Below, one piece after another: positions 24,296-47,003 of a DNA stretch of 64,000 bases. The stretch lies in contig JACPSE010000186.1 in assembly GCA_016193465.1 (NCBI GenBank), forward strand, positions 6,593-70,592. Reading direction: 5' to 3'. The position numbers and the translations under genes are program-made. Every line of letters starts with the position of its first letter. Position 1 is the first letter of the stretch. Origin of the DNA: Deltaproteobacteria bacterium (lineage in GTDB: Bacteria; Desulfobacterota; Binatia; UBA9968). The notes beneath the pieces were generated by a model. It ran no database searches. It was not told the origin of the DNA and saw only the letters and a list, made by a program, of their open reading frames with translations.

Positions 24296-24341
24296 GGTTC
24301 AAAACAATAGGCAGCAGGCAATAGAAAATTCGTTTATCGCC

Positions 24342-25430: not shown

Positions 25431-25432
25431 TT

Positions 25433-26527
25433 TTACATTCTCCCGCGCGACAGGCTGAGCAGTATCCCCGCGCATGTCAGGTTCATCACCATGGCTGAAC
25501 CTCCATAGCTGATAAACGGGAGCACCAGCCCCTTGGTGGGCATCAAGCCCATGACCACCCCCATATGGATCAGTGCTTGAAGTCCCAGCAGGATCGTCAA
25601 TCCAAAGGCCAGGTATTGACAAAAGGGTTCATCGATTCTCGATACCAGACGGAATCCCCGCACGACGACCACGCCGAAAAGCGCTAACACGGCAACGGCT
25701 CCCAACAGACCCAACTCTTCGCCGATAACAGAGAAGATAAAATCCGTGTGGGCCTCCGGCAGGTAAAAAAGCTTCTGGCGGCTCTCCCCCAGACCGCGAC
25801 CCCATAGTTGGCCGGAGCCGAACGCGATATAAGACTGGATAATCTGGAAGCCCGTACTCGAGGCATCCCGCCAGGGGTCCAGAAAAATAAGCAGGCGCCG
25901 CAGACGGTACTCGGCGCCGACCACCGCAAGCGCCACAGCCGGCAGGGCCATCAGACCGATCACAGCCAGGTGGGAGAACTTGGCGCCGCCGACGAAGAGC
26001 ATGAGAACGAGAAGCATGCCGAGAATGAGAGTTGTCCCCAGATCGGGCTCCAGCATGACGAGTCCCAAAAAGAGGCCGCCGATAATCAGGTGCGGCAGGA
26101 GTCCCATGGCGAAGGTTTGGACCTTTTCCCCTTTCTTCGCCAGAGAGTGGGCCAGGTAGAGCACAAGAGAGATCTTTGCGAGCTCCGCGGGCTGAAAGGC
26201 GAACCCTCCCAAGGGCAACCAACGTCTGGCGCCGCCGCGCGACAAACCAATCCCAGGAACTAGAACCAGTATCAACACAAAAAGAGTCAGGGCCAGAAGG
26301 GGATAGGCAAAGCGACGGTAAGAGGCAGGGGGGAGCAGCGCGGCAACGACGAGAGTGGCCAGTCCCGCCCCTGCTGCGGTGAGCTGTTTACGGAAAAAAT
26401 AGGTCCCATCGGAGAAGCGCTCCTGCGAATAAAGATAACTGGTGCTAAGCACCATCGTGATCCCCACCGCCAACAGCGCGGCCACGGCGAAGAAGAGCCA
26501 TCCATCTACCGCAATACCTTCTCTCAT
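25433..26527 (-). CDS. ftsW: peptidoglycan glycosyltransferase FtsW (SEDS family)
   Basis: Ten-TM SEDS protein with a PxxE...FGSGQ-type conserved block (AFGSGQLWGRGLGES). Confidence 0.9.
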   Translation of the reverse strand: MREGIAVDGWLFFAVAALLAVGITMVLSTSYLYSQERFSDGTYFFRKQLTAAGAGLATLVVAALLPPASYRRFAYPLLALTLFVLILVLVPGIGLSRGGARRWLPLGGFAFQPAELAKISLVLYLAHSLAKKGEKVQTFAMGLLPHLIIGGLFLGLVMLEPDLGTTLILGMLLVLMLFVGGAKFSHLAVIGLMALPAVALAVVGAEYRLRRLLIFLDPWRDASSTGFQIIQSYIAFGSGQLWGRGLGESRQKLFYLPEAHTDFIFSVIGEELGLLGAVAVLALFGVVVVRGFRLVSRIDEPFCQYLAFGLTILLGLQALIHMGVVMGLMPTKGLVLPFISYGGSAMVMNLTCAGILLSLSRGRM

Positions 26528-27858
26528 AAACCTTGAACCAGCGTCTTAAAGACCTTTCCCCTTTCCGCGTAGTTCTGAAACATGTCAAAGCTCGAACAGG
26601 CGGGAGACAGAAGGACAACTTCTCCCGGGCGAGCGGTGCGATAGGCCTCTTGGACCGCGGCCTCGAGACTCTCCACCACTGCGGTATCGCTCAGGTGGCC
26701 CAATGCCGTTCGAATCTTTTCCTTCGCCATGCCAAAGAGAACGAGCTTCTTGACTTTACGCTTCACTTCGTCTTCCAATATCCGGTAATCCCCTCCCTTA
26801 TCGATCCCCCCAGCAATCAGAACTACTGGCGCGGAAAAGCTGGCCAGAGATTTTACCACCGCTCCCACATTGGTTCCTTTGGAGTCGTTATAAAATCGGA
26901 TGCCATCCTTTTCGCGCACGAATTCAAGACGGTGCTCAAGCCCGGGAAACTCTTCCATGACTCTTTGAATAACCTCTGCCGATACGTGGGCTGACTTCGC
27001 CGCTGCTATCGCGGCCATTAGGTTCTCCACATTGTGGACCCCTTGGATCTTAACCCGGGCAAGAGAGAAGCTCTCTTCCCGATTCTTCCCGCGCCAGATA
27101 ATCTCGCTGGATGTCGCATAGACCCCCTCGGGCACCTCCGCCCATCCAAAGGAGACCGGTCGCGAGCGGATCCGCTTCCTGATGGGCCACACCAAGGGAT
27201 CATCTCGATTAAGAACCGCGACGTCCGCGCCGGTCTGGGCATGAAAAATCCTCTCCTTGGCCTCGCAGTACGAGGCAAAGTCCGGATATCGATCCAGGTG
27301 ATCCTCGGTTAAGTTCAGCAGCACCGCGATCCCGGGACGGAACTGCTCGACCCACTCGAGCTGAAAACTGCTCACCTCCACCACCCCCCAGTTCCACTGG
27401 TCGCCAACAAAGCCAATCAACGGCGCGCCGATGTTTCCGCCCACAAAGACCTTGAGACCACTCGCTTCGAGCATCTCGCCCACGAGCGTGCTGGTCGTGC
27501 TCTTGCCGTTGGTCCCGGTAATGGCCACCAGAGGAGCCGTGAGAAACCGACAGGCTAACTCGATTTCACTGATAACCCCAATCCCTCTCTGCCGTGCGCC
27601 CCGAAGCAGAGGATTTCCTGCCGGGACACCCGGGCTAGCAACCAGCAGTTCCACCCCCTCTAGCCAGGCAGCCTCTTCTCCGCCTAGCAAGAAACGTACA
27701 GGAAGACCGGAGAGGGCTTCTGTCTCTCGTTTCAGTTCCGCTTCACTTCTACAATCACTCACCAAGACTTCCGCTCCTTTACGGACGAGAAACCGGGCCG
27801 TTTCGCTTCCCGTGCGTGCCAGGCCCAAAACCATGACCTTTTTTCCCTGTAGCTCCAT
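26524..27858 (-). CDS. murD: UDP-N-acetylmuramoylalanine--D-glutamate ligase
   Basis: MELQGKKVMVLGLARTG...ITGTNGKSTT. The start is taken at the Met matching the E. coli MurD N-terminus (27858). Confidence 0.9.
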   Translation of the reverse strand: MELQGKKVMVLGLARTGSETARFLVRKGAEVLVSDCRSEAELKRETEALSGLPVRFLLGGEEAAWLEGVELLVASPGVPAGNPLLRGARQRGIGVISEIELACRFLTAPLVAITGTNGKSTTSTLVGEMLEASGLKVFVGGNIGAPLIGFVGDQWNWGVVEVSSFQLEWVEQFRPGIAVLLNLTEDHLDRYPDFASYCEAKERIFHAQTGADVAVLNRDDPLVWPIRKRIRSRPVSFGWAEVPEGVYATSSEIIWRGKNREESFSLARVKIQGVHNVENLMAAIAAAKSAHVSAEVIQRVMEEFPGLEHRLEFVREKDGIRFYNDSKGTNVGAVVKSLASFSAPVVLIAGGIDKGGDYRILEDEVKRKVKKLVLFGMAKEKIRTALGHLSDTAVVESLEAAVQEAYRTARPGEVVLLSPACSSFDMFQNYAERGKVFKTLVQGL

Positions 27859-27972
27859 CTTTCCGGTCGGCAACTCAGAAAAAAAGTTCAAGTCGTTAAC
27901 CCTTTGAACGGCTTGAACGTTTTGAACATCTCTTGCTGCCTCCTGCATACTGCTTTCTGCCTTCTCTCCGTT

Positions 27973-29049
27973 TCATCTCAGCTTCAGCGTGCTCAGTGCG
28001 AGCAGCGAGCAAATAATCGAAATGATCCAAAAACGAACGATGATCTGAGGCTCCGGCCATCCTTTGAGCTCGTAGTGGTGGTGGATCGGGGCCATGAGAA
28101 AGACCCTCTTGCGCCTGAGCTTGTAAGAGGCGACCTGAAAAATCACTGAGAGCGCTTCCAGGACAAAGACCCCGCCGACGATAACCAGGAGAATCTCATT
28201 CTTGGTCATGACCGCTACGACGCCCAAGGCCGCGCCTAGCGCTAAAGAGCCGACATCCCCCATGAACATCTGAGCCGGGTAGGTGTTGAACCAGAGAAAT
28301 CCCAGACCCGAGGCAACGATGGCCGCACAGAACACCGTCAGCTCGCCCACGCCCGCGACATAAGGGATCTGGAGATAATCGGCGAACTTGAGATGGCCGG
28401 TCACATAGGTCACAAAGGCGTAAGTCCCGGCGGCGGTCATTACCGGCCCGATCGCGAGACCGTCAAGGCCGTCAGTCAAGTTGACGGCATTCGACGCGCC
28501 CACGATCACCAGCATGGCGAACGGGATATACCAGAGGCCCAGGTCGGGACGGATGTTCTTGAAGAAGGGGAATCCGAGGACACCACTGAAACCGGGTTGT
28601 TTATAAAGGATAAGAAGCGCCACCAAAGAAACGGCCATCTGGGAAAGGAACTTGGCCCGGGCGGTAAGCCCGCGGCTAGTCTTGCGCCTGAGCTTTAAGG
28701 AATCGTCAATGAAGCCTATGACGGCGAAACCCGCGGTCACAAAAAGAGCGATCGTGATATAGAGGTTCATGATGTCAGCGAGGAGCACAGTCGAGAGAAC
28801 GAGGGCGAGAATAATGAGCGTGCCTCCCATCGTCGGAGTGCCAGCCTTGGCCGCATGGCTAGCCGGACCATCTTCGCGGATGGGCTGGCCCATCTGCGTG
28901 GCTGCCAGGGAGCGAATCAGGTAGGGGCCCAAAAGGAAAGAGATCAGCAGCGCCATCAGCGCGGCCAACGCCGCGCGAAAGGTAATGTAGCGGAAGACGT
29001 TAAAGGCCGAGTAGGTCGTGTGCAGGGGATAAAGTATATAGTAAAGCAA
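27973..29049 (-). CDS. mraY: phospho-N-acetylmuramoyl-pentapeptide-transferase
   Basis: 358-aa polytopic membrane protein with MraY signature blocks (DDxxD-like, [13 protein letters not shown]). Confidence 0.95.
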
Positions 29050-29052
29050 GGG

Positions 29053-30456
29053 TTACTCTCCCGTCTCCTTGAGCGCCTCTACGACCTTCTCCATTTTCAT
29101 GCCACGGGAGCCTTTGCAGAGAAGCCAGTCTCCCCGCCTTACCTGTCTTTGAACTATCCGGGCGATTTGTCGGTGATTTTTTCCGATAACCACTCGCCCT
29201 TTTTCCATCCCTGCGAGCAGGGCCGCTTGTTGAACCCGGCGCGCCTGCTCCCCGAGAAGATAGAGGCGATCAATGCCGTAGCGCGCCACCTGTTTTCCCA
29301 GCTCCCGGTGGCTTTCGCCGCTCTCTCTGCCCAACTCGAGCATATCCCCCAGAATCGCAATTTTTTCTCCTGTGGTTCCGATCTCGACCAGTGTTTTGAG
29401 CGCGGCTTCCATAGAAGCCGGATTGGCATTGTAGGCATCATTGATGATCCCGATCCCTCTCCACGTCTCCAACGACATCCGCATCAGAAAGGGCCGCACC
29501 GCTTCCAGTCCCCTGCCTATTGTCTCCAGGTCCACTCCAAGTCCGTAGGCCATCGCCGCGGCTCCCACCGCATTGGAAAAATTGTGCTCGCCGCAGAATT
29601 TGAGCCGGATGCGCTGCCGACCGCTACCCGCGCGCAGTGTAAACTCCGCCCCCTGTGTCCCCAAGGATACCCGCGATTCCCCTCTCACCTCGCCGCTTGT
29701 CCCGTAGGTAATCTTGTCACCTTTAAAGCTTCCTGCCAGACGGCGCACCCACGGATCGTCCATATTCACTACAGCGAGGCCGCCGGGATTCATCCCGCGA
29801 AAGAGTTCCCCCTTCTCCCGCGCGATGCCTGCAAGGTTGCGAAGTCCGGTCAAGTGGGCCGGCGCGACCGATGTGATAAGACCGATATCAGGGTCGGCGA
29901 TTTCGGTCAGGCGCCGGATCTCTCCCGGCCGACTTGTTCCCAATTCCAGCACGGCTACCCTCTCTCTGCCCTTCAGACGAAGCAGCGTTAAAGGTAACCC
30001 CACGAGGTTGTTAAAGTTCCCTTCGGTTTTTAGAACCCTGCCCCGAAGCGATTTTCCGTGAATCGCAGCCCGGTCTAGAATCGCCGCCACCATTTCCTTC
30101 GTCGTCGTCTTCCCGTTTGATCCTGTAATAGCCAAAACCTTAGGCGCCACCATGTTGCGGCGATGGCGGGCCAGATCTCCCAGGGCCTTGAGCGTGTCCC
30201 GAACCCGAATCACAGCCGCACCCTTCAAATGGAAAACCCCTGGCCGCTTGTGAACCACCAAGCAGGCCGCCCCGCGGCGAGCCGCCTCCCTCAGAAAGTC
30301 ATGGCCGTCAAACCTCTCTCCTTTCAGCGCGACAAACACGGACCCCTTCACGACCTTTCCAGAATCGGTAACGACCTCGCCGAAGACTACCTCCCTTCCC
30401 TCGCGCAGGATCTTCCCGCCGGTCGCCAAGAGGATCTCTTGCTTGCTCCATGACAT
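29053..30456 (-). CDS. murF: UDP-MurNAc-tripeptide--D-alanyl-D-alanine ligase
   Basis: Mur ligase with ITGSNGKTTTKEM and cluster position. Confidence 0.9.
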   Translation of the reverse strand: MSWSKQEILLATGGKILREGREVVFGEVVTDSGKVVKGSVFVALKGERFDGHDFLREAARRGAACLVVHKRPGVFHLKGAAVIRVRDTLKALGDLARHRRNMVAPKVLAITGSNGKTTTKEMVAAILDRAAIHGKSLRGRVLKTEGNFNNLVGLPLTLLRLKGRERVAVLELGTSRPGEIRRLTEIADPDIGLITSVAPAHLTGLRNLAGIAREKGELFRGMNPGGLAVVNMDDPWVRRLAGSFKGDKITYGTSGEVRGESRVSLGTQGAEFTLRAGSGRQRIRLKFCGEHNFSNAVGAAAMAYGLGVDLETIGRGLEAVRPFLMRMSLETWRGIGIINDAYNANPASMEAALKTLVEIGTTGEKIAILGDMLELGRESGESHRELGKQVARYGIDRLYLLGEQARRVQQAALLAGMEKGRVVIGKNHRQIARIVQRQVRRGDWLLCKGSRGMKMEKVVEALKETGE

Positions 30457-30541
30457 TACTTTAGCTCATAGACCGCCAAAAAGAACTGTCGGCTCATTGC
30501 AAAATGAAAGTGCAAAATACAAAAGTCAAATTTTTCATTTT

Positions 30542-32110
30542 TCACTTTGCATTTTGAATTGAGTCCAGCTCTTCTCTCGCCACTTCCCGGTCATCGAAGT
30601 GGATGCGCCTGGGTCCCAGGATTTGATAATCCTCATGTCCTTTTCCTGCTATCAGCACCAGGTCACCGGCGTGTGCCAGCCGCAGAGCTAAACGGATAGC
30701 GGCGCGACGATCCGGCTCGACATAATAACCTTTCTCAGTTTTTAGTTTTGAGTTTTTAGTTTTGAGTTCCGAGTATTGAGATCTGAGATCTGAAATCTGA
30801 AATTTTTTTATGCCGGTCTTTCGCACTCCCGCTTCGACCTCTTCCAGGATCCCGAGCGGCTCCTCGGTGCGCGGATTATCTGAGGTCAGGACTGCCAGGT
30901 CGCCGAGACGCCCCGCGATCTCGCCCATGAGGGCTCTTTTTCCTCGATCGCGATCTCCGCCGCAGCCAAAAAGCACAATCAGCTTCCTCCGGGTCAAGGG
31001 CCGTACGGCGCCAATCACCCTCTCCAAGGCATCGGGGGTATGGGCGTAATCGACCAAAACCGAGACGCCGAGGTCGTTCTTGATCCTTTCCAACCTGCCG
31101 GGAACCGATTGGAGCCGGGCGATCCCGGTCGAAATAGCGCTCCCCGGCAAGCCCAAGGCGAAACCAACGCCGACGGCGCCCAAGATATTTTCCAGATTAG
31201 CCACGCCTATCAGTCGAGAGGAGAAATCGATCTCTTCACCCTTCACCCGGATCTTTCCTGTAAGCCCGTCAATGCCCCCTTCAAACTCCGCCGGGTGAAC
31301 ATCCCACTCTCTCCCCCGGCCGTAGCTCCAAACCTCAAACCCCAGATTGCGGATTTTTTCCAAAAGTTCTTTGCCCCTGGAGTCCCCGCCATGAATGACC
31401 GCGAACTTTTTCTCCTTAGAGCTCGCTCCAAGGTAATCCGTAAAAAGCTTGGTCTTGGCGGAAAAATAACCCTCCATATCCCGGTGGAAATCGAGATGGT
31501 CGCGCGTGAGATTGGTAAACAGAGCCCCATCAAATTCGATTCCCCGCACCCGTTCCATCTCCAATGCGTGCGAGGAAACTTCCATGGCCACGGAGTTAAC
31601 TCCGGCATCAGCCATCTCGGCCAGAAGCCCCTGGAGATCCACCGACTCCGGAGTCGTGTACGGCGCGGGCAATGCCCGATCCTGATACCTGTAATTGATC
31701 GTGCCAACCACTCCCGGCGCCATCCCCGCCGCCGAAAAGATCGATTCCAAGAGATACGTGACCGTGGTCTTGCCGTTGGTGCCGGTGACTCCGATCAACG
31801 CTATTCGACTACTCGGGCGCGCGAAATATAAGGCTGACCACATTCCCATAGTCCGCCTTACGCTGCGCACTCGGACCGAGGTGGCGCCTTGAGGCAGTGG
31901 TATCCTCTGCTCCACAACTACAGCGGCAGCGCCTCGCTCGAGGGCCTCGGCAGTAAACTGATGCCCATCCGCCCGCGTCCCGGAAACCGCAAAGAAGAGA
32001 TCACCTTTTTTTACTCGCCGCGAATCGTAGGCAAGACCCGTGATAGTCTGATTCATATCTCCCTCGGCCTCTTCTACTTGCCCCGCCTCCACGAGTTCCT
32101 TGAGCCTCAT
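30542..32110 (-). CDS. murE: UDP-MurNAc-L-Ala-D-Glu--2,6-diaminopimelate ligase; carries an in-frame AT-rich repeat-derived insertion near the C-terminus
   Basis: GVTGTNGKTT...DNPRTEEP...AGKGHEDYQI. The start is taken at MRLKELVE (about 32110, +/-1-2 bp), 5 nt after the ftsI stop. Confidence 0.9.
   Translation of the reverse strand: MRLKELVEAGQVEEAEGDMNQTITGLAYDSRRVKKGDLFFAVSGTRADGHQFTAEALERGAAAVVVEQRIPLPQGATSVRVRSVRRTMGMWSALYFARPSSRIALIGVTGTNGKTTVTYLLESIFSAAGMAPGVVGTINYRYQDRALPAPYTTPESVDLQGLLAEMADAGVNSVAMEVSSHALEMERVRGIEFDGALFTNLTRDHLDFHRDMEGYFSAKTKLFTDYLGASSKEKKFAVIHGGDSRGKELLEKIRNLGFEVWSYGRGREWDVHPAEFEGGIDGLTGKIRVKGEEIDFSSRLIGVANLENILGAVGVGFALGLPGSAISTGIARLQSVPGRLERIKNDLGVSVLVDYAHTPDALERVIGAVRPLTRRKLIVLFGCGGDRDRGKRALMGEIAGRLGDLAVLTSDNPRTEEPLGILEEVEAGVRKTGIKKFQISDLRSQYSELKTKNSKLKTEKGYYVEPDRRAAIRLALRLAHAGDLVLIAGKGHEDYQILGPRRIHFDDREVAREELDSIQNAK
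30735..30808. repeat. AT-rich tandem repeats inside the murE coding sequence (2.x copies of a 14-mer, then a 7-mer array)
   Basis: tttttagttttgag x2, ttccgagtattgag, atctgag x2, atctgaa x2. On the coding strand this encodes ...KKFQISDLRSQYSELKTKNSKLKTEKGYY..., absent from E. coli MurE. Confidence 0.7.
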
Positions 32111-32115
32111 CCTGG

Positions 32116-34071
32116 TCAACCCTGCAGGTTCAGAGTCAGCGGTTCTCCCTTCCCCCAAACTGCGCCAGGAGCGGGCGACTGTTTTACAACGTACCCGTTG
32201 CCGCGCAACTCTACCTTGAGCTTCAGGGTCCTTGCCTTCTCGACCGCCTCGCGCAGGCTGAGACCAACAAAGTCCGGAACCTCCAGAACGCCGTCTCCCT
32301 TCTCCGCCTCATTCCCACTCTTTCGCTCCACGCGCACCGAAGTTCCCTCTTTAGCCGCCGGCAAGGGCAGCGGCTGAGGCTTGTCTGGCACGATGCCCAA
32401 ATAGCGCAAGGCGCCGCTTGCGATATTGCGAAAGGCCGGTGCGGCAACGACGCCGCCATAAACGCTACCTTCCGGTTCATCCACGATGACGAGCAAAACT
32501 AGCCGGGGATCATCCGCCGGCACAAATCCGATAAAGGAAGCAACTCTCTTCCTGCCCGAATATCCGCCATGGACCAGATCCGGCTTCTCGGCAGTCCCAG
32601 TTTTGCCGGCAACTTCGAACCCTTCCACACTGGCCATGAGACCGGTCCCACCATCGCTTACAACTCCCTTGAGAATTGCCGTAAGCAAGCGGGCGCTCTT
32701 TTCCGAAACTACGCGACGCACCACATGGGGCTGGTTGGCTACCAACACCTCGCCGTCAGGGGCAACCACGCGACGCACGACGAAAGGCCGCATGAGGATA
32801 CCCCCATTGGCAACCGCTCCATACGCCATAACGAGCTGAATCGGGGTCACTGCAATTCCCTGCCCGAACGCGTGAGTGGCCAAATCAATGGGAGACCAAC
32901 TATCCGGGCGTCGCGCCATGCCGGCCGCCTCTCCGGGCATGTCGATCCCTGTCAGATGACCAAAGCCAAATCTCTCGATGTATTTGAAATACCTCTCCTT
33001 CTTAAGTTTCTCCGCCACTTTGGTTACGCCAATGTTGCTGGAGTATTGGATGATCTTGTAGAAGGGCAGCCACCCGTACTCATGGGTGTCGTGAATAGTC
33101 CTGCCTGCATAAGAATATTTGCCAAATTCACAATAGAAGAGGTCTTCTTTGCCGACTACGCCTTCCTCCAAGACAGCGGCGGCTAAAATCGTTTTGAATG
33201 TGGAACCGGGCTCGAAACTGTCTGTCACTGCCCGATTGCGCCACTGCCGGGATGACTGCCGGGCAAAGTTGTTGGGATTAAAAAACGGATAGTTTGCAAG
33301 CGCCAGGACCTCGCCGGTAAACGGCTCCACTACGACGGCGATACCCGCTCTGGCGCGATATTTGGCAACCGTCGCTTCTAGCTGTTTTTCCGCGAGATGT
33401 TGGATAGAGGTATCTACGGTCAGGTGGATATCCGCTCCGGGCGGTATCTGAATCTCTTCCACGCCTCGGGCGAGGACCCTGCGCCCCAAGGCATCGCGCT
33501 CGATTACCGGCGAGCCGCTCTCGCCGCGGATATAACTGTCGTAATATAGTTCAATGCCTTCCAACCCTTGGGAATCCCTGCCCACAAAACCCACTACCTG
33601 TCCCGCAAGCTGGCCTTGCGGATAGTAGCGATTGGGTTCGGAGGACATTCCTACCCCTTCCAGGTTGAGTGCTCTTATTGTCTCCGCCTCTTTGGGGGTT
33701 ATCTGCCGTTTGAGCCAGACAAAAGGTTTCTCTGTCTTGAGCTTCTGCTGCAGCTCAGCCTGGTCCAGACCCAAAGCCTGGGCCAAACTCTGCGCCACCC
33801 TCTCCGGTTCTTTAATACGCCTGGGACGGGCATAAACCGACTGGACCTCGAGGCTTAGCGCCAATGGCTCGCCGGCACGGTCCAGAATGGTTCCCCGCTT
33901 CGGCAACACAATCCATTCCTTCAGGTGTTGCCGCTCTCCAAGTCGTTTGAGCTTTTCTCCTTGGAGGATCTGAAGCTGAAATGCGCGCACCAGCACCGCC
34001 AAAAACATCACCAGGAAAAAGAGCCCGGCGATGGCCAAGCGGAACCTGATCCCTTGGAAGGATCTTCTCAT
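32116..34071 (-). CDS. ftsI: peptidoglycan D,D-transpeptidase FtsI (class B PBP) with a C-terminal PASTA domain
   Basis: TM anchor, transpeptidase motifs (STFK, SSN-like, KTGT), and a C-terminal PASTA-like ~60 aa. Confidence 0.9.
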   Translation of the reverse strand: MRRSFQGIRFRLAIAGLFFLVMFLAVLVRAFQLQILQGEKLKRLGERQHLKEWIVLPKRGTILDRAGEPLALSLEVQSVYARPRRIKEPERVAQSLAQALGLDQAELQQKLKTEKPFVWLKRQITPKEAETIRALNLEGVGMSSEPNRYYPQGQLAGQVVGFVGRDSQGLEGIELYYDSYIRGESGSPVIERDALGRRVLARGVEEIQIPPGADIHLTVDTSIQHLAEKQLEATVAKYRARAGIAVVVEPFTGEVLALANYPFFNPNNFARQSSRQWRNRAVTDSFEPGSTFKTILAAAVLEEGVVGKEDLFYCEFGKYSYAGRTIHDTHEYGWLPFYKIIQYSSNIGVTKVAEKLKKERYFKYIERFGFGHLTGIDMPGEAAGMARRPDSWSPIDLATHAFGQGIAVTPIQLVMAYGAVANGGILMRPFVVRRVVAPDGEVLVANQPHVVRRVVSEKSARLLTAILKGVVSDGGTGLMASVEGFEVAGKTGTAEKPDLVHGGYSGRKRVASFIGFVPADDPRLVLLVIVDEPEGSVYGGVVAAPAFRNIASGALRYLGIVPDKPQPLPLPAAKEGTSVRVERKSGNEAEKGDGVLEVPDFVGLSLREAVEKARTLKLKVELRGNGYVVKQSPAPGAVWGKGEPLTLNLQG

Positions 34072-34415
34072 GGCAGGAGCACCACCTGACCTTTCTGCGG
34101 CTCCACCAGCCCTAGCCGCGTACGGGCCATTGCCTCCAGACGGTCCGGAGAGGTCAGGGTAGCCAGTTCTACTTTCAGTTCCCGGTTCTCCTGCTCCAGT
34201 TGATTGTGCAACTTACTGGTAGTAGAAAGCACATAACCCAAATCGACCACCTGCAACCGCAGCCACACGTGCAGCAGGGCAAGCCCGACCAGGCATAATC
34301 CCAACAGGAGAAAAGAGAAAAAGAAGTGACGTTGCCTGTGCGGATAAAATCGATCCATCCGCTGCCTCTTCAGGAAGCCTAGCCCCCATACCTGTCTGCT
34401 TAGGGCTGTGGCCAC
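34068..34415 (-). CDS. ftsL: cell division protein FtsL-like
   Basis: Small single-TM protein with a leucine-rich coiled-coil, between rsmH and ftsI. Confidence 0.6.
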   Translation of the reverse strand: MATALSRQVWGLGFLKRQRMDRFYPHRQRHFFFSFLLLGLCLVGLALLHVWLRLQVVDLGYVLSTTSKLHNQLEQENRELKVELATLTSPDRLEAMARTRLGLVEPQKGQVVLLP

Positions 34416-34426
34416 GATCGATCTCC

Positions 34427-35332
34427 CTAAACTCGTTCCGCCGCCCGCAGCTTGGCAGAGCGGGCACGCGGGTTGATCCGAGTCTCCATCTCGGAGGGAA
34501 GAAGAGGTCTGGAGGTGAGAAGCCTGGCCTTTTGACTCCAGCCACAGTAGCAGAAAAGAGTCTTAGGCGGGCAGATGCAGTCCCGGCTCCATTTACGAAA
34601 GGCCTTCTTAACCAGCCGATCTTCCAACGAATGGAAAGAGATCACCACCATGCGTCCTTTCAAGAGCAACAGTTCATAGGCGTTTTCAAGAAAGCCTGCG
34701 AGCTGGTCTAGCTCGCGATTCACCGCTATCCTTAACGCCTGAAATGTCCTGGTAGCGGGATGGATATGGCTCCGTCCGCCCCCAAGCGCCCGCGTCACCA
34801 GCTCCGCTAACTCTCCGGTGGTTCCGATCTTTTTTCTCTTGCGTTGCGCATCGATAGCCAAGGCGATACGACGCGCACGGCGTTCTTCACCATACTCCCG
34901 AAATATCCGCTCCAATTTCGAAACGGGATAGGTGTTGACAACCTGATAAGCATCTATAGATTGTCGCCGATCCATGCGCATGTCGAGCCTGCTGTCGAAT
35001 TGGAAACTGAAGCCCCGTCCCCGAGACTCCAGGTGATGGGAGGATAATCCGAGATCCAAAAGGATCCCATCCACTTTGTGCCAGCCGACTTCTCTCAATA
35101 TCTCACTTGCTTCCGTAAAATTGGCGCGCCGAATCAACAGACGCTCCGCGAATCTCTTGAGCCGTTCCCGAGTCGCAGCGATCGCCTCGTCATCCCAGTC
35201 CAGACCGAGGACCAAGCCATCCGGGCTGCTGAGCGTCAAAATCTGTTCGCTATGACCTCCGCCTCCCAAGGTTCCGTCAAGGTACCTTCTATGCGCCTGG
35301 GGTTGCAGGAGTTCCATCACCTCCCGCACCAT
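34427..35332 (-). CDS. rsmH: 16S rRNA (cytosine1402-N4)-methyltransferase RsmH (MraW)
   Basis: YLDGTLGGGGHSEQIL SAM motif; 301 aa. Confidence 0.9.
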   Translation of the reverse strand: MVREVMELLQPQAHRRYLDGTLGGGGHSEQILTLSSPDGLVLGLDWDDEAIAATRERLKRFAERLLIRRANFTEASEILREVGWHKVDGILLDLGLSSHHLESRGRGFSFQFDSRLDMRMDRRQSIDAYQVVNTYPVSKLERIFREYGEERRARRIALAIDAQRKRKKIGTTGELAELVTRALGGGRSHIHPATRTFQALRIAVNRELDQLAGFLENAYELLLLKGRMVVISFHSLEDRLVKKAFRKWSRDCICPPKTLFCYCGWSQKARLLTSRPLLPSEMETRINPRARSAKLRAAERV

Positions 35333-35355
35333 GACAGGCGCATGCGTGTAAGCCG

Positions 35356-35718
35356 TTAATGGTATGTTCCGTCTCCCTCCCAGTCTTCGTCAAAACTCTC
35401 GATGGCATCCTCCAATGAGGTATACTCCTCGAAGAACTGATCCATGCCGACGACTCTGAAGATATCCCGCAGATAGGAGCTCATACCCGCCAGTTTTAGA
35501 TCGCCATTCAGATTCCTCAGAATCCTCAGTCTCTCAACCAACACTCCGATGCTCAGGTAGTTGATGTGGTCCACGGCTTTGAGATTCAAGACGACCTTGA
35601 TTCGGTCCTTCTCGATTAAGGATCCGATGACATCCTTAATCCTTATCATCTCGCGAAAATCAATGTCGCCGGTGATATCAATCACCGAAATATCCTGGAT
35701 CACTTTACGCTGCAGCAT
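35356..35718 (-). CDS. STAS-domain anti-sigma-factor antagonist (SpoIIAA-like), inserted between mraZ and rsmH
   Basis: VIDITGDIDF...KVVLNLKAVDHINYLSIGVLVERLR...GDLKLAGM...RDIFRVVGMDQ; 120 aa. Confidence 0.7.
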   Translation of the reverse strand: MLQRKVIQDISVIDITGDIDFREMIRIKDVIGSLIEKDRIKVVLNLKAVDHINYLSIGVLVERLRILRNLNGDLKLAGMSSYLRDIFRVVGMDQFFEEYTSLEDAIESFDEDWEGDGTYH

Positions 35719-35744
35719 TCGTTATCCTCCTTTCACCTACCGGG

Positions 35745-36197
35745 CTAGAGTCCCAAATCGCCGAGAGAATCGGGGTCCTGCATCAATTTTTCCTCGGCCT
35801 CTGCGAAGACTTTCTTCCAGGCTTCCTTATCCCACACCCGAAACTTATCCAGCGCTGACACCAAAACCACTTCCCGTTTGAGGTTGGCATAGTGGCGGAG
35901 CAGCGGCGGAATCAGGATCCGTCCGTGCTTATCCACTACACACTCACAGGCGCCCCCTAGATAATAGTTCTGAAAAAGAACCATACGGCGATCGAACTTT
36001 GGCTTTTTTCTGATCTCTTCTTCGAAACGAAGCCACTCGTCGAGGGGATAAACATCCAGGCACCGTGCGGCGTCGACGACAAAGTTAGTGATGACGATGC
36101 GCTCGTCCCCTTTGCCCAAAAGGACCTCACGAAATCTCGAAGGGATACTCAGTCGCCCTTTGGCGTCCAGGGTATGCTCAAAGCTTCCACGAAACAT
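35745..36197 (-). CDS. mraZ: transcriptional regulator MraZ
   Basis: MFRGSFEHTLDAKGRLSIPSRFR... and the duplicated MraZ fold; 150 aa. Confidence 0.9.
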   Translation of the reverse strand: MFRGSFEHTLDAKGRLSIPSRFREVLLGKGDERIVITNFVVDAARCLDVYPLDEWLRFEEEIRKKPKFDRRMVLFQNYYLGGACECVVDKHGRILIPPLLRHYANLKREVVLVSALDKFRVWDKEAWKKVFAEAEEKLMQDPDSLGDLGL

Positions 36198-36290
36198 GTT
36201 CTTATTGGGATGCTATGGGAAGTTATCCCACTTTTTCCCACCTGGGCCTGATTTATAACCCCCTACAACCTATATGTCAATAAAAAAATT
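36198..36290 (-). promoter_or_regulatory. mraZ promoter (TTGACA-N17-TATAAA) with an MraZ operator (GTGGGA x2 direct plus TCCCA x2 inverted, ~10-11 bp phasing)
   Basis: The minus strand reads TTGACAtataggttgtagggggtTATAAAtcaggcccagGTGGGAaaaaGTGGGAtaactTCCCAtagcaTCCCAataagaacATG. Confidence 0.6.
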
Positions 36291-36485
36291 CGCTGTTTTA
36301 AGACGATTCTTGTGCCGGGACTGGAGATACCACAATATATTGGTGCTTTTTGTAAATCCCCTCGGGCTTAGCCACAAGATATTGACAGTCAATAGTGAAA
36401 TTTTATGAGGGAGGTAACAACTGCCGGCTGATCTGGGGCCGCTGGTATTATTTCAGACAAAGTTGGGGGGAAATGATTCCGATCT

Positions 36486-36875
36486 TAGAAGGGCTAAAGT
36501 GGATCGATAAGCCGGATTCTGTGGTGGCTCCTAGGAGAAGCCACAGCGATCATTCATCTTGCCCCATGATTGCTCACGGGGTCTAGCGACCTTACCCGAG
36601 GGCTAAGGGCGGACCACCCAACCCTCCTATTTGGTCTTGCTCCAGGTGGGGTTTGCCTAGCATCTACCATCACTGGCAGACCGGTGAGCTCTTACCTCGC
36701 CTTTTCACCCTTACCCACCATCAAAATTGGCGGGCGGTATTTTTTCTGTGGCACTTTCCCCCGATCGCTCGGGGCCGCCGTTAACGGCCACCCTGTCCTG
36801 TGGAGTCCGGACTTTCCTCTCCCGGCCATGCTTGTGGCAGAGCAGAGAGCGACCGCTTGATCCACTTTAGCCCGG
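36486..36875 (-). ncRNA. rnpB: RNase P RNA (bacterial type A)
   Basis: The minus strand contains GGAAAGTCCGGACTCCACAGGACAGGGTG, AGGGTGAAAAGGCGAGGTAAGAGCTCACC, ACCCCACCTGGAGCAAGACCAAATAGG and ACAGAATCCGGCTTATCG, which match E. coli M1 RNA conserved regions. P1 is formed by GGGCTAAAGTGGATC pairing with GATCCACTTTAGCCC as a perfect 15-bp stem. Confidence 0.9.
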
Positions 36876-36904: not shown

Positions 36905-37336
36905 TTAGTCGAATAACGGGCGCCGCGCGTCGTCAATGGCGCGATTGGCCAGTCGGTCAGCCAACCGGTTGTGCTCCCGGCCTACATGAATGATATGATA
37001 AGCCTCAAGCTGGCGCAATAACCCCAATGCCCGCTGATGAAGGCGCTTGAGCTTTTCGTCCTTGACCCGATAAAGACCGTTTAATTGACGCACCAAGAGC
37101 TGGGAATCGCTCTGGACCCGGAGTCTTTTTCCGCCCAGTCGAAGAACCCGTTCAAGCCCCATGAGAAGCCCTTCGTATTCGGCGACGTTGTTCGTTGCGT
37201 GACCGAGGTAGCGGCAGAGCTCATCCAGCAACTTGCCACTCTCGTCAAAGATGGCGGCGCCACACCCCGCATTCCCTGGATTTCCCCTGGCCGCCCCGTC
37301 CACCATGAGCAGCCACTCTCCACCGGGGGCTGACAT
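36905..37336 (-). CDS. rnhA: ribonuclease H (RNase HI-like)
   Basis: WLLMVDGAARGNPGNAGCGAAIFD...NNVAEYEGLLMGL...VQSDSQLLV...REHNRLADRLAN. The start is set at the internal Met, 5 nt after the upstream gene stop. Confidence 0.75.
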   Translation of the reverse strand: MSAPGGEWLLMVDGAARGNPGNAGCGAAIFDESGKLLDELCRYLGHATNNVAEYEGLLMGLERVLRLGGKRLRVQSDSQLLVRQLNGLYRVKDEKLKRLHQRALGLLRQLEAYHIIHVGREHNRLADRLANRAIDDARRPLFD

Positions 37337-37341
37337 GGACG

Positions 37342-38070
37342 CTAGAGTTGCCTGTCGCTTGGGACAGGCGGTTTGTAGTAGAGGATCCGGTGGCAACTAG
37401 GGCAGAGAATCAGCTTTTCACTTTTGATAATTTCATTCCAGAGCTGAGGCGGGATATTCATAAAACAACCCTGGCAAATTCCCTCTGAGACCGCGACCAC
37501 GGCCATGCCGCCGCGTCGGGAAAAAATCAGCTCATACCGCCCGATCAGCTCTCCATTGAGCTGGGTGGCGATCGACTGACGGACCGCCGACGCATCGGCG
37601 ACAGCCCGGTCGATCCCGGCAACCTGCGCTTCTATCTCGCCCCGTCTTTCCCTCCAAGCGTCCTCCAATTTCTTCAACTCCTCCTCTTTCGCCCCGAGGG
37701 ATGCGGCGCATGCCTCCAGCTCCTCCATGAGTTTAATCAGCTCCTCCTCCAACTGGGCATTGCCCAGTTTGGTCTGATCGATTTCTCGCTGCAGGGCCTG
37801 CAGTTCTTTAATGCTTTTGATGCGGTTCATACGCATCCGCTTGTCCGTCACCTTCCTACTTTCTTCCTGCAACAACTGCTCCTTTTCCTGCCGCAGCTTA
37901 TCTTTCTCGGCCCATTCGGCTCTAACCGTCGCCAACTCTGCATTCTTCGCCTGGACCTCTTCTTCCCTCTTTTCGATTTCAGCTAAGAGCTCTCCCTTGG
38001 CCCCGCTTTTTTCCTTGATCTCGCGGTCCGCGTTCTGGAGCGAAGCCAAAATCTCTATCTGCTCCCGCAA
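37342..38070 (-). CDS. COG1579-type zinc-ribbon and coiled-coil protein (zf-RING_7, C4 zinc ribbon at the C-terminus)
   Basis: Long coiled-coil followed by CQGC...CPSCHRILY; TTG start with GGAGGG upstream. Confidence 0.75.
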   Translation of the reverse strand: MREQIEILASLQNADREIKEKSGAKGELLAEIEKREEEVQAKNAELATVRAEWAEKDKLRQEKEQLLQEESRKVTDKRMRMNRIKSIKELQALQREIDQTKLGNAQLEEELIKLMEELEACAASLGAKEEELKKLEDAWRERRGEIEAQVAGIDRAVADASAVRQSIATQLNGELIGRYELIFSRRGGMAVVAVSEGICQGCFMNIPPQLWNEIIKSEKLILCPSCHRILYYKPPVPSDRQL

Positions 38071-43994: not shown

Positions 43995-45460
43995 TAATCC
44001 GACAATAATTTACCCATTCAGGCAGCCATTTTGAGCTTTTGGTCGATCATTCGAATCAGCGCTTGGGCAGGTTTAGCCACCGAAAAACGTAGAACGGAAT
44101 AGCCTTGAGGTCGTAGGAGCCGAGCCGGTTGATGGATTAGCTTGAAGCGAAGGGTCTTCAGACTCTGCAGGAGAAAACGGAAGGTCCTTTTACGCGACCT
44201 GGGCTTTTGGGTAGCTGTGGTCTGAATCTGAAAGCTCCTCAGGAGGTTATGTCCCAACACGGAGATTTGCTGCCAAGCCGAGTTGGCGCCGTAGTGATGG
44301 GTGGGCACGACATCGAAAGCCCATTCCCCCTTGAGCTCGGCGAAGGTCTTCTCCTGCGCTCCCCGTCCAGCCATGAAGTCCCACAAAGCGGCGGCAGAAA
44401 GATCCCTGTTGGTGGTCGCAGCCGAGTACTCAAAGTAGCCGTCATCGGGGTCAAACAGATCAAGCTGGTAGTTCTTCCTGCTTTTATGATGCACGGGTTT
44501 TCGGTAGATGACCACTCGCAAGATCTTTTCCCAAGCGGGAACCGTCAGAGACAGCTCGAAGAAGCCCATCCCTTCTGGGAGAGGATGCCAGCGGCTGCGC
44601 TCTCGGATCAAAGGCACCAGACCCAACCACTTGAAGAAGGGGACCTTGATCGCATAAGAAGCTCCTCTTCTCTCCAACAGACCGATCACCTCCCTCTGGA
44701 AGAAAGCCCCGTCCATGCGAAATTCCAAAGGCAAATGTCTTCCCAGGCGGATTCTCAAATCTTCGATCAGATCACGCAGGAAGGCCACCGCGCCTTTGGA
44801 GTCATGGACATTGCCGGGCCGATTCTTGACTCTCAGGATGTGTCCGGTCTGAGCCAGATGGGCGAGGATGGGATAGTAGGAGGAATCTTTGCGATGATGG
44901 GGATTGAACCCCCGAAAGGCCCAAGAGACACTGGCGCCTGTGGTGATGACGCTGCCGTCGATATCCAGGGTCAAACGAGCAAGCCCCTCTTTTTCAATGG
45001 CCTCACAAACCATTTGACTGTTAATCTCGACCAGGGCCTGAAGCGACTTAAGCGTGAAGCGCTTGAGCCAGCGGGCAACACTGCGATCCCGGGGCAGACG
45101 CATCAGACCGCAGAACCGCTTCACCAGAGGATCTTCACAGACATAGCCCAGATGTTCCAGCCTTCGGCCACCTACAAGAACAAGGACCAAGATCACCAAA
45201 ATCATGTCGATCGCCCGGTAGTCTCCTCCCAGACCATGAGCGGCAAACACCGACTGGACACGGCGATGAAGCTCGATGATCCGAAAGTATCGCCGGATCA
45301 ACTCCAGCCCTCCATAAGCTGTGATATCCTGGGAAGCAAATTCGATCTTGAGAAAGCTCTTGCACGGAGAGTAAAAATCGGCTCTACTGAGTCTCACTTG
45401 GAGTGGCCTCCTTGTAGGGTGATTGGGTCGGTGTTGCAACTGCTTTATCTCCTATAATGG
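43995..45460 (-). mobile_element. IS1380-family insertion sequence (approximate ends)
   Basis: Contains the 473-aa IS1380-like DDE transposase. Exact IRs not resolved. A ~30-bp segment matching the transposase 3' end recurs immediately upstream at 45455-45485. Confidence 0.6.
44018..45439 (-). CDS. IS1380-family DDE transposase
   Basis: ITAYGGLELIRRYF...DIDGSVITTGAS...RGFNPHHRKDSSYYPILAHLAQTGHILRVKNRPGNVHDSKG; ~470 aa. Confidence 0.75.
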   Translation of the reverse strand: MQHRPNHPTRRPLQVRLSRADFYSPCKSFLKIEFASQDITAYGGLELIRRYFRIIELHRRVQSVFAAHGLGGDYRAIDMILVILVLVLVGGRRLEHLGYVCEDPLVKRFCGLMRLPRDRSVARWLKRFTLKSLQALVEINSQMVCEAIEKEGLARLTLDIDGSVITTGASVSWAFRGFNPHHRKDSSYYPILAHLAQTGHILRVKNRPGNVHDSKGAVAFLRDLIEDLRIRLGRHLPLEFRMDGAFFQREVIGLLERRGASYAIKVPFFKWLGLVPLIRERSRWHPLPEGMGFFELSLTVPAWEKILRVVIYRKPVHHKSRKNYQLDLFDPDDGYFEYSAATTNRDLSAAALWDFMAGRGAQEKTFAELKGEWAFDVVPTHHYGANSAWQQISVLGHNLLRSFQIQTTATQKPRSRKRTFRFLLQSLKTLRFKLIHQPARLLRPQGYSVLRFSVAKPAQALIRMIDQKLKMAA

Positions 45461-45606
45461 CAGGCCATTTCAAGTTTTAAGGTCATCTGTAAAGAAAGTG
45501 GTGACGTGCTAAATTTCCTGTAAAAGTGAAGAGGCGTTGAGTATCCTCTCGGGTGAAACAAACCAAAGAGGCTCCGTGATAGCGGAGCCGGGAGGAGGTC
45601 AACGCC

Positions 45607-45885: not shown

Positions 45886-45956
45886 CATTCGCTAAGGTGC
45901 CAATGAGAGAAAGCGTCAATGTCACAGTGAAAGATTTGACCCTCAAACCCTAGTTT

Positions 45957-46883: not shown

Positions 46884-47003
46884 GATACATTAGATTGTAA
46901 CGCAACGGATTACCTATTCAATAACCCTCTGTTTTCAACAAACCTAATAACAGGTTTCGTCCTTGCCCTCGTGCCTGAGCAAAGGCTACCTTCCGAGAAA
47001 ACT

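Follow-up and report, generated by a model that had tools for sequence, protein, structure and literature searches.

STAS proteins such as SpoIIAA and RsbV typically act by sequestering a regulator. Their family-defining switch is a phosphorylatable serine or threonine at the N-terminus of helix alpha-2, within the motif D-S-[ST]-G. Phosphorylation is not the only means of control: mycobacterial RsfA/RsfB-type antagonists include redox-regulated, non-phosphorylated ones, and a regulatory cysteine pair defines the redox-switched RsfA-like proteins. Ligand binding, of nucleotides for example, is known for some STAS domains.

The dcw cluster is among the most conserved bacterial gene arrays, and how mraZ and rsmH, the two genes that open it, contribute to division is poorly understood. 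The locus described here contains a third gene, fixed between these two and encoding a STAS protein; it is better conserved than either neighbor and lacks the family-defining switch. A literature search found no paper linking STAS with mraZ, rsmH, or dcw.

The mraZ-STAS-rsmH locus

The window, the whole 64-kb stretch of DNA that was analyzed, encodes the following features:

36492-36868, minus strand: RNase P RNA gene, rnpB (RF00010, 309 bits)
36252-36280, minus strand: Pmra, a promoter-like site (-35 TTGACA at 36280-36275; 17-nt spacer; -10 TATAAA at 36257-36252)
36216-36241, minus strand: MraZ-box-like repeats (GTGGGA at 36241-36236; 4-nt spacer; GTGGGA at 36231-36226)
35745-36197, minus strand: mraZ, 150 aa (PF02381, 108.9 bits; TIGR00242, 122.9 bits, cut-off 98.35)
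35731-35726, minus strand: Shine-Dalgarno sequence AGGAGG of the STAS gene, read from the sequence, with the ATG 7 nt downstream
35356-35718, minus strand: serine-less STAS gene, 120 aa, ATG start
34427-35356, minus strand: rsmH (PF01795, 357 bits; TIGR00006, 321 bits)
34068-34415, minus strand: ftsL (PF04999, PF04977)
18489-34071, minus strand: remainder of the dcw cluster, ftsI to ftsZ (Pfam matches)
16914-17996, plus strand: ddl (PF07478, 249.8 bits; PF01820, 124.8 bits)

Past ftsL the genes are ordered ftsI (whose product contains a PASTA domain), murE, murF, mraY, murD, ftsW, murG, murC, murB, ftsQ, ftsA, and ftsZ. The rnpB gene lies directly upstream of Pmra and outside the operon.

The reading frame between mraZ and rsmH, previously noted as a SpoIIAA-like STAS gene, bears out that assignment. 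It matches the STAS profile PF01740 with 58.8 bits (gathering threshold 22.6) over residues 3-105, corresponding to profile positions 3-106 of 106, and the anti-sigma factor antagonist profile TIGR00377 with 58.5 bits (cut-off 53.45); its score of 47.2 bits against the SpoIIAA equivalog TIGR02886 falls below the cut-off of 114.75. The AlphaFold2 model (pLDDT 88.9, pTM 0.81) adopts the SpoIIAA/RsbV/RsbS fold. Foldseek assigns probability 1.00 to matches with SpoIIAA, RsbS, RsbV, and SLC26 STAS domains, and the best-matching structures are 4hyl, SpoIIAA, RsbS, and RsbV. Comparison with Binatia orthologues gives dN of about 0.1 with dS mostly saturated, and dN/dS of about 0.03 where measurable, so this is not a chance reading frame. 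The protein ends in a helix and tail, S108-F-D-E-D-W113-E-G-D-G-T-Y-H120. The product is a stand-alone SpoIIAA-fold protein that represents a distinct STAS subfamily, with no match to a model of its own in Pfam, NCBIfam, or PHROG.

The gap between mraZ and the STAS gene is 26 nt (35719-35744). On the other side, the first canonical rsmH start is an ATG at 35332, 23 nt from the STAS gene, and the conserved RsmH N-terminus Y-T-H-A-P-V is encoded upstream of it (35350-35333). Indeed, RsmH homology (the PF01795 match covers residues 4-309 of the extended translation) reaches approximately 35350-35356, abutting the STAS stop codon with a gap of at most 5 nt. The rsmH frame is open back to 35392, and upstream of the ATG the possible starts are only CTG (35383), ATA (35365), or ACG (35356). 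The junction reads TAACG in the window, and TAATG or TAA-ATG in most relatives. (Programmed frameshifting or readthrough yielding a STAS-RsmH fusion was considered and dismissed, since the sequence lacks a slippery site and rsmH begins with a normal ATG or GTG at this junction in the relatives.)

Tight spacing is general. Among relatives, the mraZ-STAS gap has a median of 47 nt and measures 17-62 nt in 69 of 70 loci, whereas the STAS-rsmH distance has a median of 6 nt (70-77 relatives), and the first conserved RsmH residue lies no more than 8 nt past the STAS stop codon in 61 of 77. Most Binatia, along with the more distant loci L084, L086, and L090, show either overlapping STAS stop and rsmH start codons (TAATG, TAA-ATG, or TGAnnnGTG) or overlapping genes. 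Physical coupling of the STAS gene therefore is tighter to rsmH than to mraZ.

Pmra, a sigma-70-like site with a predicted transcription start near 36245, was read directly from the sequence; a simple promoter scanner, which accepts only T as the sixth base of the -10 element, missed it. Nearly all Binatia loci have the -10 element, similarly placed with respect to the GTGG boxes, and about 75 relatives keep GTGGGATAAAGTGGGATAA.TTCCCATA upstream of mraZ. An inverted TCCCA (36220-36216) follows the boxes. Published MraZ targets are described as GTGG[A/T]G repeats with a 4-nt spacer (bioRxiv 10.1101/2022.02.09.479790) or as GTG(G/T) boxes 6 nt apart (PMC12957436), and the GTGG repeats upstream of mraZ match them. 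No terminator-like site was found between mraZ, the STAS gene, and rsmH. The STAS gene thus has the marks of a dcw/mra operon member: same strand; short or overlapping distances; no intervening terminator; and conserved position. Co-expression is supported by the conserved promoter with its GTGG boxes, the tight spacing, and the stop/start overlaps. The earlier note had proposed co-transcription from an MraZ-controlled promoter; these sequence features make the proposal plausible, and MraZ autoregulation probably governs production of the STAS protein along with that of MraZ and RsmH.

The ddl gene is absent from the interval between murB (21868-22896) and ftsQ (21038-21895), as had been noted. 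It lies 492 nt beyond the end of ftsZ, on the opposite strand and convergent with it, and therefore is a neighbor of the operon rather than a part of it. Among dcw genes, ddl is one of those most often found outside the cluster (PMC8871954), so its location, once thought worth remarking, is ordinary variation without special significance.

Tyrosine or phenylalanine at the phospho-site

Alignment places SpoIIAA residue Ser58 opposite Tyr54 of the STAS protein, within the local sequence VDHINYLSIG. The signature accordingly reads V49-D-H51-I-N53-Y54-L-S-I-G58; N-Y-L-S stands where D-S-[ST]-G is expected, and the phosphorylatable serine or threonine at the N-terminus of helix alpha-2 is missing. 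Tyr54 is invariant in 121 family sequences, and His51 and Asn53 are invariant as well; an alignment of 18 sequences has 53 invariant positions. Helix alpha-2 has Tyr54 at its N-cap in the AlphaFold2 model, and the H-x-N-Y cluster at the N-terminal end of the helix corresponds to the phosphate site in phospho-SpoIIAA.

Substitution at this site extends beyond the Binatia. Fourteen distant members share the invariant His and have Phe or Tyr at the Ser position, defining a family signature, H-x-x-[Y/F], in which His stands three residues ahead of the former Ser position. Among 191 STAS domains (from the 150 best library representatives), 112 have Ser or Thr at the phospho-position and 33 have H-x-x-[Y/F]. 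In this subfamily, then, the phosphorylatable serine at the helix alpha-2 N-cap is replaced by Tyr or Phe. Ser56, two residues past the canonical phospho-site, is invariant in Binatia and could be phosphorylated by a kinase encoded elsewhere.

The search for partner-switching components covered 64 kb of this genome together with the 4-6 kb flanks of relatives. Neither an HATPase_c kinase, nor a SpoIIE/PP2C phosphatase, nor a sigma factor was found in the roughly 75 Pfam-scanned reading frames of the window, and the called genes of loci L001, L084-L093, and L143 likewise include no kinase, phosphatase, or sigma factor. Because the serine is replaced by tyrosine, and because the window reading frames include no kinase, phosphatase, or sigma factor, canonical phospho-dependent switching is unlikely. 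The suggestion that the gene couples a partner-switching module to dcw expression accordingly is not supported.

Distribution, and copies in Mu-like phages

Every one of the 81 related loci in Binatia (at least 81 genomes at species level) has the order mraZ-STAS-rsmH-ftsL, a result that does not amount to universality, since the relatives were retrieved through the STAS protein itself and Binatia without it would go unseen. Distant members, 29-36% identical to the STAS protein of the window, occupy the same slot in seven of seven cases (P0171, P0280, P0278, P0282, P0273, P0350, and P0360). At the five of these loci that were compared (L084, L085, L087, L089, and L090), MraZ, RsmH, FtsI, and MurE are 37-47% identical to their counterparts in the window. 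By contrast, both mraZ and rsmH flank none of 48 control loci, which are generic STAS loci drawn from a metagenome scan with a degenerate pattern and are not family members. The earlier note had viewed the gene as an insertion peculiar to this genome; the synteny survey that it called for overturned this view, an outcome that the note itself had listed as refuting, and the idea carries no special significance.

Within Binatia, the STAS gene is the best conserved of the proximal operon, with mean protein identity of 84.5%, compared with 78.8% for MraZ, 68.9% for FtsI, 64.2% for RsmH, and 63.2% for FtsL. At four loci MraZ identity falls to 44-49% while that of the STAS protein stays at 82-85%, so co-evolution of the two is not obvious. 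As a member of the mra/dcw operon, the STAS gene has been inherited vertically in Binatia and in several further deep lineages that are poorly named. Neighbor-joining (NJ) bootstrap support for monophyly of the dcw-linked family as a whole is below 50%, however, and repeated recruitment into the same slot therefore is possible.

Homologues 39-68% identical to the STAS protein are carried in the early regions of Mu-like phages and prophages. The closest, 68% identical to the window protein, is on L094, an IMG/VR contig with transposase, MuB, Gam, and endolysin genes that was found by a viral scan with the phage-type STAS alignment. Three others (P0126, P0148, and P0271) lie between the MuB and Gam genes of Mu-like prophages; P0128 adjoins RusA and a terminase. 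One metagenome-assembled genome contains both a prophage copy (L082) and a dcw copy (L075); apart from this case, assignment of the phages to hosts is inferred. In the NJ tree, L094, P0126, and P0148 fall with the Binatia clade at a node with 72% bootstrap support, and P0271 and P0128 diverge immediately outside it. The MuB proteins of the four Mu-like contexts are 42-48% identical, marking related phages, so few independent captures are represented. Divergent phage copies keep the C-terminal motif and have lost H-x-N-Y. No comparable small phage STAS was found in PHROGs, BFVD, or GenBank phages.

Together, the fixed dcw position across lineages and the phage copies indicate that the STAS protein probably is an undescribed division-linked regulator rather than a one-off insertion. 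For an uncultured phylum of global distribution, as for other deep lineages, a serine-less STAS in this position points to a layer of division control not previously described. Copies borne by phages are independent evidence that what the protein controls is worth hijacking; moreover, those that retain the tail but lack H-x-N-Y are natural variants usable for mapping function.

Candidate roles and relation to known systems

The best reading, held at a little under an even chance, is that the STAS protein is a phosphorylation-independent adaptor of the mra operon. It would act by protein binding, through the alpha-2 face, through the C-terminal helix and tail (conserved, acidic, and Trp-containing), or through both. 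Its partner would belong to the division or mra circuit, with MraZ, RsmH, and divisome proteins as the candidates. The gene presumably was captured by Mu-like phages infecting these hosts, and the phage copies, expressed from the early host-takeover region, might mimic or compete with the host protein; loss of H-x-N-Y with retention of the C-terminal motif is what a decoy might look like. A bolder and distinctly more tentative version makes the protein an unrecognized core division regulator of Binatia and several further uncultured lineages, the third player in an MraZ-RsmH module, which binds MraZ or a divisome protein through its C-terminal helix and tail, and against which Mu-like phages evolved decoys that arrest or re-program host division.

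A specific sub-case of the adaptor reading has the STAS protein bind MraZ as an anti-repressor or co-repressor, tuning Pmra, with the phage copies re-programming dcw transcription. The gene always directly follows mraZ, at the short distances given above, and sits behind conserved MraZ boxes; regulator sequestration, moreover, is typical of STAS proteins. Nevertheless, the tighter physical coupling is to rsmH, and this role is unlikely. That coupling might instead suggest that the protein regulates the 16S rRNA m4C1402 methyltransferase or is one of its subunits, kept stoichiometric by translational coupling, as the stop/start and gene overlaps with rsmH would allow. But RsmH works alone in organisms where it has been studied, its conservation is far below that of the STAS protein (64% vs 84.5%), and an rRNA methyltransferase subunit has no evident use to a phage. 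A role as RsmH accessory is, accordingly, quite unlikely.

Canonical partner switching would make the protein an anti-sigma-factor antagonist whose RsbW/SpoIIAB-like kinase and PP2C phosphatase are encoded elsewhere, tying a sigma factor to dcw expression. The TIGR00377 score above cut-off, the closest solved structures (SpoIIAA, RsbV, and RsbS), and the invariant Ser56 are consistent with such a role. It is made improbable by Tyr or Phe at the phospho-Ser position of every aligned family member and N-Y-L-S in place of D-S-[ST]-G; by the SpoIIAA equivalog score of 47 bits against 114.75; and by the lack of HATPase_c, SpoIIE/PP2C, and sigma factor genes among the annotated reading frames of the window and among the called genes around ten non-Binatia or phage loci. 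The phage copies likewise come without any kinase.

Still less probable is a small-ligand sensor, in which the H-x-N-Y cluster might bind an anionic ligand (a nucleotide or a peptidoglycan precursor) and report precursor supply to the division machinery. Invariance of the three residues, the placement of Tyr54 at the helix N-cap, and ligand binding by some STAS domains are compatible with this idea, which derives purely from structural considerations; divergent phage copies, however, are retained without the motif. Finally, a recent strain-specific insertion or a spurious reading frame, suggested only by the first impression that mraZ and rsmH normally adjoin, is refuted by shared synteny (81 of 81 relatives plus other lineages), a strong Shine-Dalgarno sequence, conservation with strong purifying selection (dN/dS), and a confident fold, and retains virtually no probability.

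How, then, does the adaptor reading relate to described systems? Like SpoIIAA and RsbV (TIGR00377; PDB 1auz, 1th8, and 6m36), the protein is a single STAS-fold domain (TM-score 0.66-0.78; sequence E-values 2e-6 to 1.5e-3) some 115-120 aa in length, and presumably it also acts by protein-protein binding. It differs in three respects: Ser58 of SpoIIAA is Tyr54, and D-S-S-G-L-G becomes N-Y-L-S-I-G; the gene lies inside the dcw operon rather than beside a kinase or sigma factor gene; and the C-terminus carries a conserved extension that is acidic, contains Trp, and terminates in His. The top solved structure by both sequence (E 6.5e-7) and structure (E 2.2e-7) is the Haliangium ochraceum antagonist 4hyl, which retains Ser at the phospho-site ('vsymssaglrvl') and is only 25% identical. 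This is a structural-genomics entry, and we know of no functional study of it.

The RsfA/RsfB-type antagonists, whose fold is matched through 8ih8, set a precedent for STAS antagonists without serine-phosphorylation control. Their genomic context is different, and the 120-aa STAS protein contains no cysteine; a disulfide switch therefore is impossible, and a redox-switched, RsfA-like antagonist was rejected. MlaB, of the MlaFEDB lipid transporter (PDB 6z5u and 7d06), likewise is a small, stand-alone, phosphorylation-free STAS accessory subunit. Similarity to MlaB chains is marginal, however (E 0.3-0.4 over residues 14-68), and the locus contains no mlaFED or other Mla genes, so an MlaB-type subunit was also set aside. 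A SulP/SLC26 transporter STAS domain was rejected as well: the reading frame stands alone, with its own Shine-Dalgarno sequence and stop codon, and is not fused to a transporter.

The phage copies have a parallel of their own. The early semi-essential region of Mu carries kil and other host-directed genes, and the STAS copies, lying between MuB and Gam, occupy the same kind of region as Mu and lambda kil. They have no sequence relationship with kil; rather, the phage STAS is a homologue of a gene from the host dcw operon.

The STAS gene of the dcw cluster

A complete dcw cluster lies on the minus strand of the window (18489-36197), with ddl nearby:

35745-36197, minus: mraZ, first gene of the cluster
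35356-35718, minus: STAS open reading frame (ORF), 120 amino acids, second in order, after mraZ
34427 to about 35350, minus: rsmH, third in order, after the STAS ORF
Following rsmH, minus, in order: ftsL, ftsI, murE, murF, mraY, murD, ftsW, murG, murC, murB, ftsQ, ftsA, ftsZ
16914-17996, plus: ddl, convergent with ftsZ, 492 nt away

The ATG of the second gene follows an AGGAGG Shine-Dalgarno sequence 7 nt upstream. Sequence and fold both make its product a STAS superfamily member: the Pfam STAS score is 58.8 bits (cut-off 22.6), that for TIGR00377 (anti-sigma factor antagonist) is 58.5 bits (cut-off 53.45), and a confident AlphaFold2 model (pLDDT 88.9) superposes on SpoIIAA, RsbS, RsbV, and Haliangium 4hyl with TM-scores of 0.66-0.78. 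These scores, the fold, and the gene order bear out the earlier note, which described a SpoIIAA-like gene between mraZ and rsmH. That note also placed ddl outside the cluster; indeed, ddl is on the opposite strand and missing from the murB-ftsQ junction. This part of the finding is ordinary, because ddlB, murB, and murC often lie outside the cluster in a dcw synteny study that has no STAS gene among the dcw genes (PMC8871954).

FtsI (32116-34071, minus) carries a C-terminal PASTA domain (44.8 bits), and a PASTA match, mostly weak, is present in FtsI of 6/7 other STAS-bearing loci (the remaining one, L089, ends before ftsI). The longest murG ORF (24342-25622, minus) has a TTG start and overlaps ftsW (25433-26527) by 190 nt. 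Its Pfam match starts at residue 68; the real start is probably further downstream. Immediately upstream of the mraZ promoter is rnpB (RNase P RNA; 36492-36868, minus); further upstream are genes for an RNase H-like protein (36905-37396) and a CT398-like coiled-coil/zinc-ribbon protein (37342-38070, minus). Wherever a locus extends far enough upstream of mraZ, the CT398-like gene is there too; the RNase H-like gene is in most such loci. Elsewhere, there is an IS200-like Y1 transposase gene (11662-12501, plus), and the interval 44018-50000 looks like an accessory or mobile patch; the interval holds a DDE transposase gene (44018-45439), then about 5 kb of ORFs without Pfam matches and a HigA-like antidote gene (49235-49561). 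The window also has two genes resembling phosphosulfolactate synthase (ComA) (7603-8556, plus; 63421-63939, minus), the latter matching the C-terminal part of the profile only.

Conservation and predicted expression of the arrangement

The closest proteins, 80-97% identical, belong to metagenome-assembled genomes (MAGs) that carry the label Candidatus Binatia or 'Deltaproteobacteria bacterium RIFCSP...', which places the window in Binatia (Binatota). With one genome per GTDB species scanned, 106 encoded a relative. The order mraZ-STAS-rsmH-ftsL is present in 80/80 fetched loci (the best 80 of 106, located through the STAS protein itself, so that Binatia lacking the gene would escape the survey) and in a 3.36-Mb Binatia contig. 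With the arrangement present throughout this STAS-anchored sample, the idea of an insertion peculiar to this genome fails by the refuting condition that the earlier note had set, universality of the arrangement in the phylum. A recent insertion or spurious ORF is scarcely credible. Against the window's own copies, mean identities across Binatia loci are highest for STAS, 84.5% (lowest value 74.8%), followed by MraZ, 78.8%; FtsI, 68.9%; RsmH, 64.2%; and FtsL, 63.2%. The STAS gene is under strong purifying selection, with dN about 0.1, synonymous sites saturated in most comparisons, and dN/dS about 0.03 where measurable.

The arrangement reaches beyond Binatia. An exhaustive HMMER search of 1.84 billion representatives returned 6569 STAS matches, only three of them below 1e-30 and then a graded series of small STAS proteins. 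Seven distant members (P0171, P0280, P0278, P0282, P0273, P0350, and P0360; 29-36% identity to the window protein) were placed on contigs, and in all seven the gene has mraZ before it and rsmH after it, with ftsL and ftsI next in line (L089 ends before ftsI). In the five loci compared (L084, L085, L087, L089, and L090), MraZ, RsmH, FtsI, and MurE are 37-47% identical to those of the window, and GC content ranges from 42 to 55%; these are different deep lineages. A profile built from these members recovered 49 clusters at 112 bits or more, with the next matches at 75 bits. Of 48 generic STAS loci taken from a metagenome scan to serve as a control, not one was flanked by both mraZ and rsmH.

Upstream of mraZ are promoter-like elements:

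36280-36275, minus: -35 element TTGACA
36257-36252, minus: -10 element TATAAA, 17 nt after TTGACA
36241-36226, minus: GTGGGA-AAAA-GTGGGA, then inverted TCCCA

Nearly every Binatia locus has the layout TATAAG... GTGGGATAAAGTGGGATAA.TTCCCATA ahead of mraZ, and it agrees with the MraZ binding repeats described in B. subtilis, GTGG[A/T]G with a 4-nt spacer (bioRxiv 10.1101/2022.02.09.479790). A sequence scan found no terminator-like site between mraZ, STAS, and rsmH. The mraZ-STAS gap is 26 nt in the window (median 47 nt in relatives). The distance from the STAS stop to the first conserved RsmH residue is at most 8 nt in 61 of 77 relatives, with junctions such as TAATG, TAA-ATG, or TGAnnnGTG; genes of the distant lineages overlap or almost abut. 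The promoter-like site, the lack of a terminator-like site, and the tight junctions together give good in silico support for predicted co-transcription from a MraZ-controlled promoter, as previously proposed, and for translational coupling to rsmH.

Two direct repeats, CAATAT(C/A)TTGTGG(C/T)TA, about 50 nt apart and each with a GTGG core (36325-36395, minus), lie between rnpB and the -35 element, beside the palindrome TTGACTGTCAA; they could be additional MraZ boxes or a second promoter. In four Binatia loci (L044, L053, L056, and L062), MraZ (gene at about 3506-3961) is only 44-49% identical to that of the window, the neighbouring STAS protein is 82-85% identical, and the GTGG boxes are rearranged (TATAAAGTGGGCC...TTGTGGGAG).

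No ATG, GTG, or TTG precedes the conserved RsmH N-terminus Y-T-H-A-P-V in the window (35330-35392, minus). Relatives have a TAATG stop/start overlap of STAS and rsmH; its ATG is ACG (35356-35354) in the window and in L002 and L003, and a canonical start is missing also from the close relatives L008, L010, L039, and L048. Upstream, the frame stays open as far as TGA at 35392, and its only table-11 starts are CTG (35383) and ATA (35365); initiation at the first ATG (35332) would remove the H-x-P-V motif.

Phosphorylation site and partner genes

HMMER aligns the phosphorylated Ser58 of SpoIIAA (D-S-S-G-L-G) with Tyr54 of the window protein (N-Y-L-S-I-G), a residue that caps the N-terminus of helix α2 (54-69) in the model, the structural position of the phospho-serine. 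The motif VDHINYLSIG is invariant or almost so across 121 Binatia sequences; 14 distant dcw-linked members all keep His51 and have Phe or Tyr at the serine position. As aligned, therefore, this STAS family lacks the phosphorylation site whose conservation the earlier note had proposed to check. The 150 best library representatives contain 191 STAS domains; of these, 112 carry Ser/Thr at that position, mostly as [Y/F]-x-x-S, versus 33 with H-x-x-[Y/F], which marks the latter as a distinct subfamily. The Binatia type also has a signature of its own, the C-terminal helix and tail S-F-D-[DE]-D-W-E-G-D-G-T-x-H, in which Trp113 and the terminal His120 are invariant. The helix is modelled with confidence; the last five residues are not.

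Pfam scans of the approximately 75 window ORFs revealed no HATPase_c kinase, PP2C/SpoIIE phosphatase, or sigma factor, and the called genes of the other loci include no kinase, phosphatase, or sigma factor. With the serine replaced and partner genes not found in the loci scanned, canonical phospho-dependent partner switching is unsupported. The earlier note holds as observation (STAS position and ddl), and its interpretation in part: predicted co-transcription from a MraZ-controlled promoter is well supported in silico, a genome-specific insertion or a partner-switching module at dcw is not.

Other readings were tried and rejected: MlaB-like (E 0.3-0.4, no mla genes), transporter STAS (the window protein is stand-alone), and cysteine-switched antagonist (it contains no Cys).

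Phage copies and a possible adaptor

Library matches that combine the Binatia-type C-terminal motif with another α2 motif are phage genes. P0126, P0148, and P0271 lie between a MuB-like ATPase and Gam in Mu-like prophages that also carry a Mu transposase C-terminal domain, GemA, and SSB; P0128 adjoins RusA in a region with ParB, HNH, and GpA terminase. An IMG/VR scan added L094, a Mu-like viral contig of 32.8 kb whose genes match PHROGs for transposase, DNA transposition protein B, Gam, and endolysin amidase. Its STAS protein (127 amino acids, 68% identical to the window protein) contains VDHINYMSLG and SFDDDWRGGGTYH. The copies occupy early regions of Mu-like phages or prophages and one RusA/terminase-type region:

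L094, 5289-5672: STAS
L082, 6001-6357: STAS
L083, 4491-4847: STAS
L091, 5001-5348: STAS
L092, 5001-5375: STAS
L093, 5001-5357: STAS

A conserved ORF of about 135-175 amino acids, of no known family, lies beside STAS in Mu-like elements (L082, 5480-6004; L094, 4813-5256; L093, 5354-5698).

Identity between the phage copies and the Binatia protein is 39-68%, higher than for the dcw-linked proteins of other lineages. In a neighbor-joining tree, a node with 72% bootstrap support joins L094, P0126, and P0148 to the Binatia clade; P0271 and P0128 diverge immediately outside it. One MAG holds both a prophage copy (L082) and a dcw copy (L075). Sequence proximity, tree, and co-occurrence make host-to-phage transfer the simplest reading, and since the four Mu-like elements are themselves related, few capture events would be needed. 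No comparable phage STAS was found in PHROGs, BFVD, or 50,697 GenBank phage records.

This suggests a general model, tentative and a little short of an even chance, in which the STAS protein, co-produced with MraZ and RsmH, would be a phosphorylation-independent adaptor binding a partner in the division or mra circuit. Candidate partners are MraZ, RsmH, or a divisome protein. Phages would express STAS mimics or decoys from the early host-takeover region. The C-terminal tail may serve as docking element and the H-x-N-Y face as effector or sensor element, a pattern that fits the divergent phage copies, which retain S-F-D-x-x-W without H-x-N-Y. Two sub-cases specify the partner: a modulator of MraZ is unlikely, and an RsmH accessory slightly more so. 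A canonical partner-switching component, despite the TIGR00377 score, is improbable given Tyr or Phe in place of the phospho-serine, and a ligand sensor is more doubtful still.

In the paper library searched, nothing relevant connected STAS to mraZ, rsmH, or dcw. The arrangement is a real feature, of ancient standing in the lineages that have it, and apparently new to the literature. SpoIIAA/RsbV-type antagonists are defined by a phosphorylatable serine, where the window protein has Tyr54, and their genomic partners were not found at the window locus. For these two reasons the gene is not filed as an anti-sigma antagonist, but as a member of a new, serine-less, dcw-embedded STAS subfamily.
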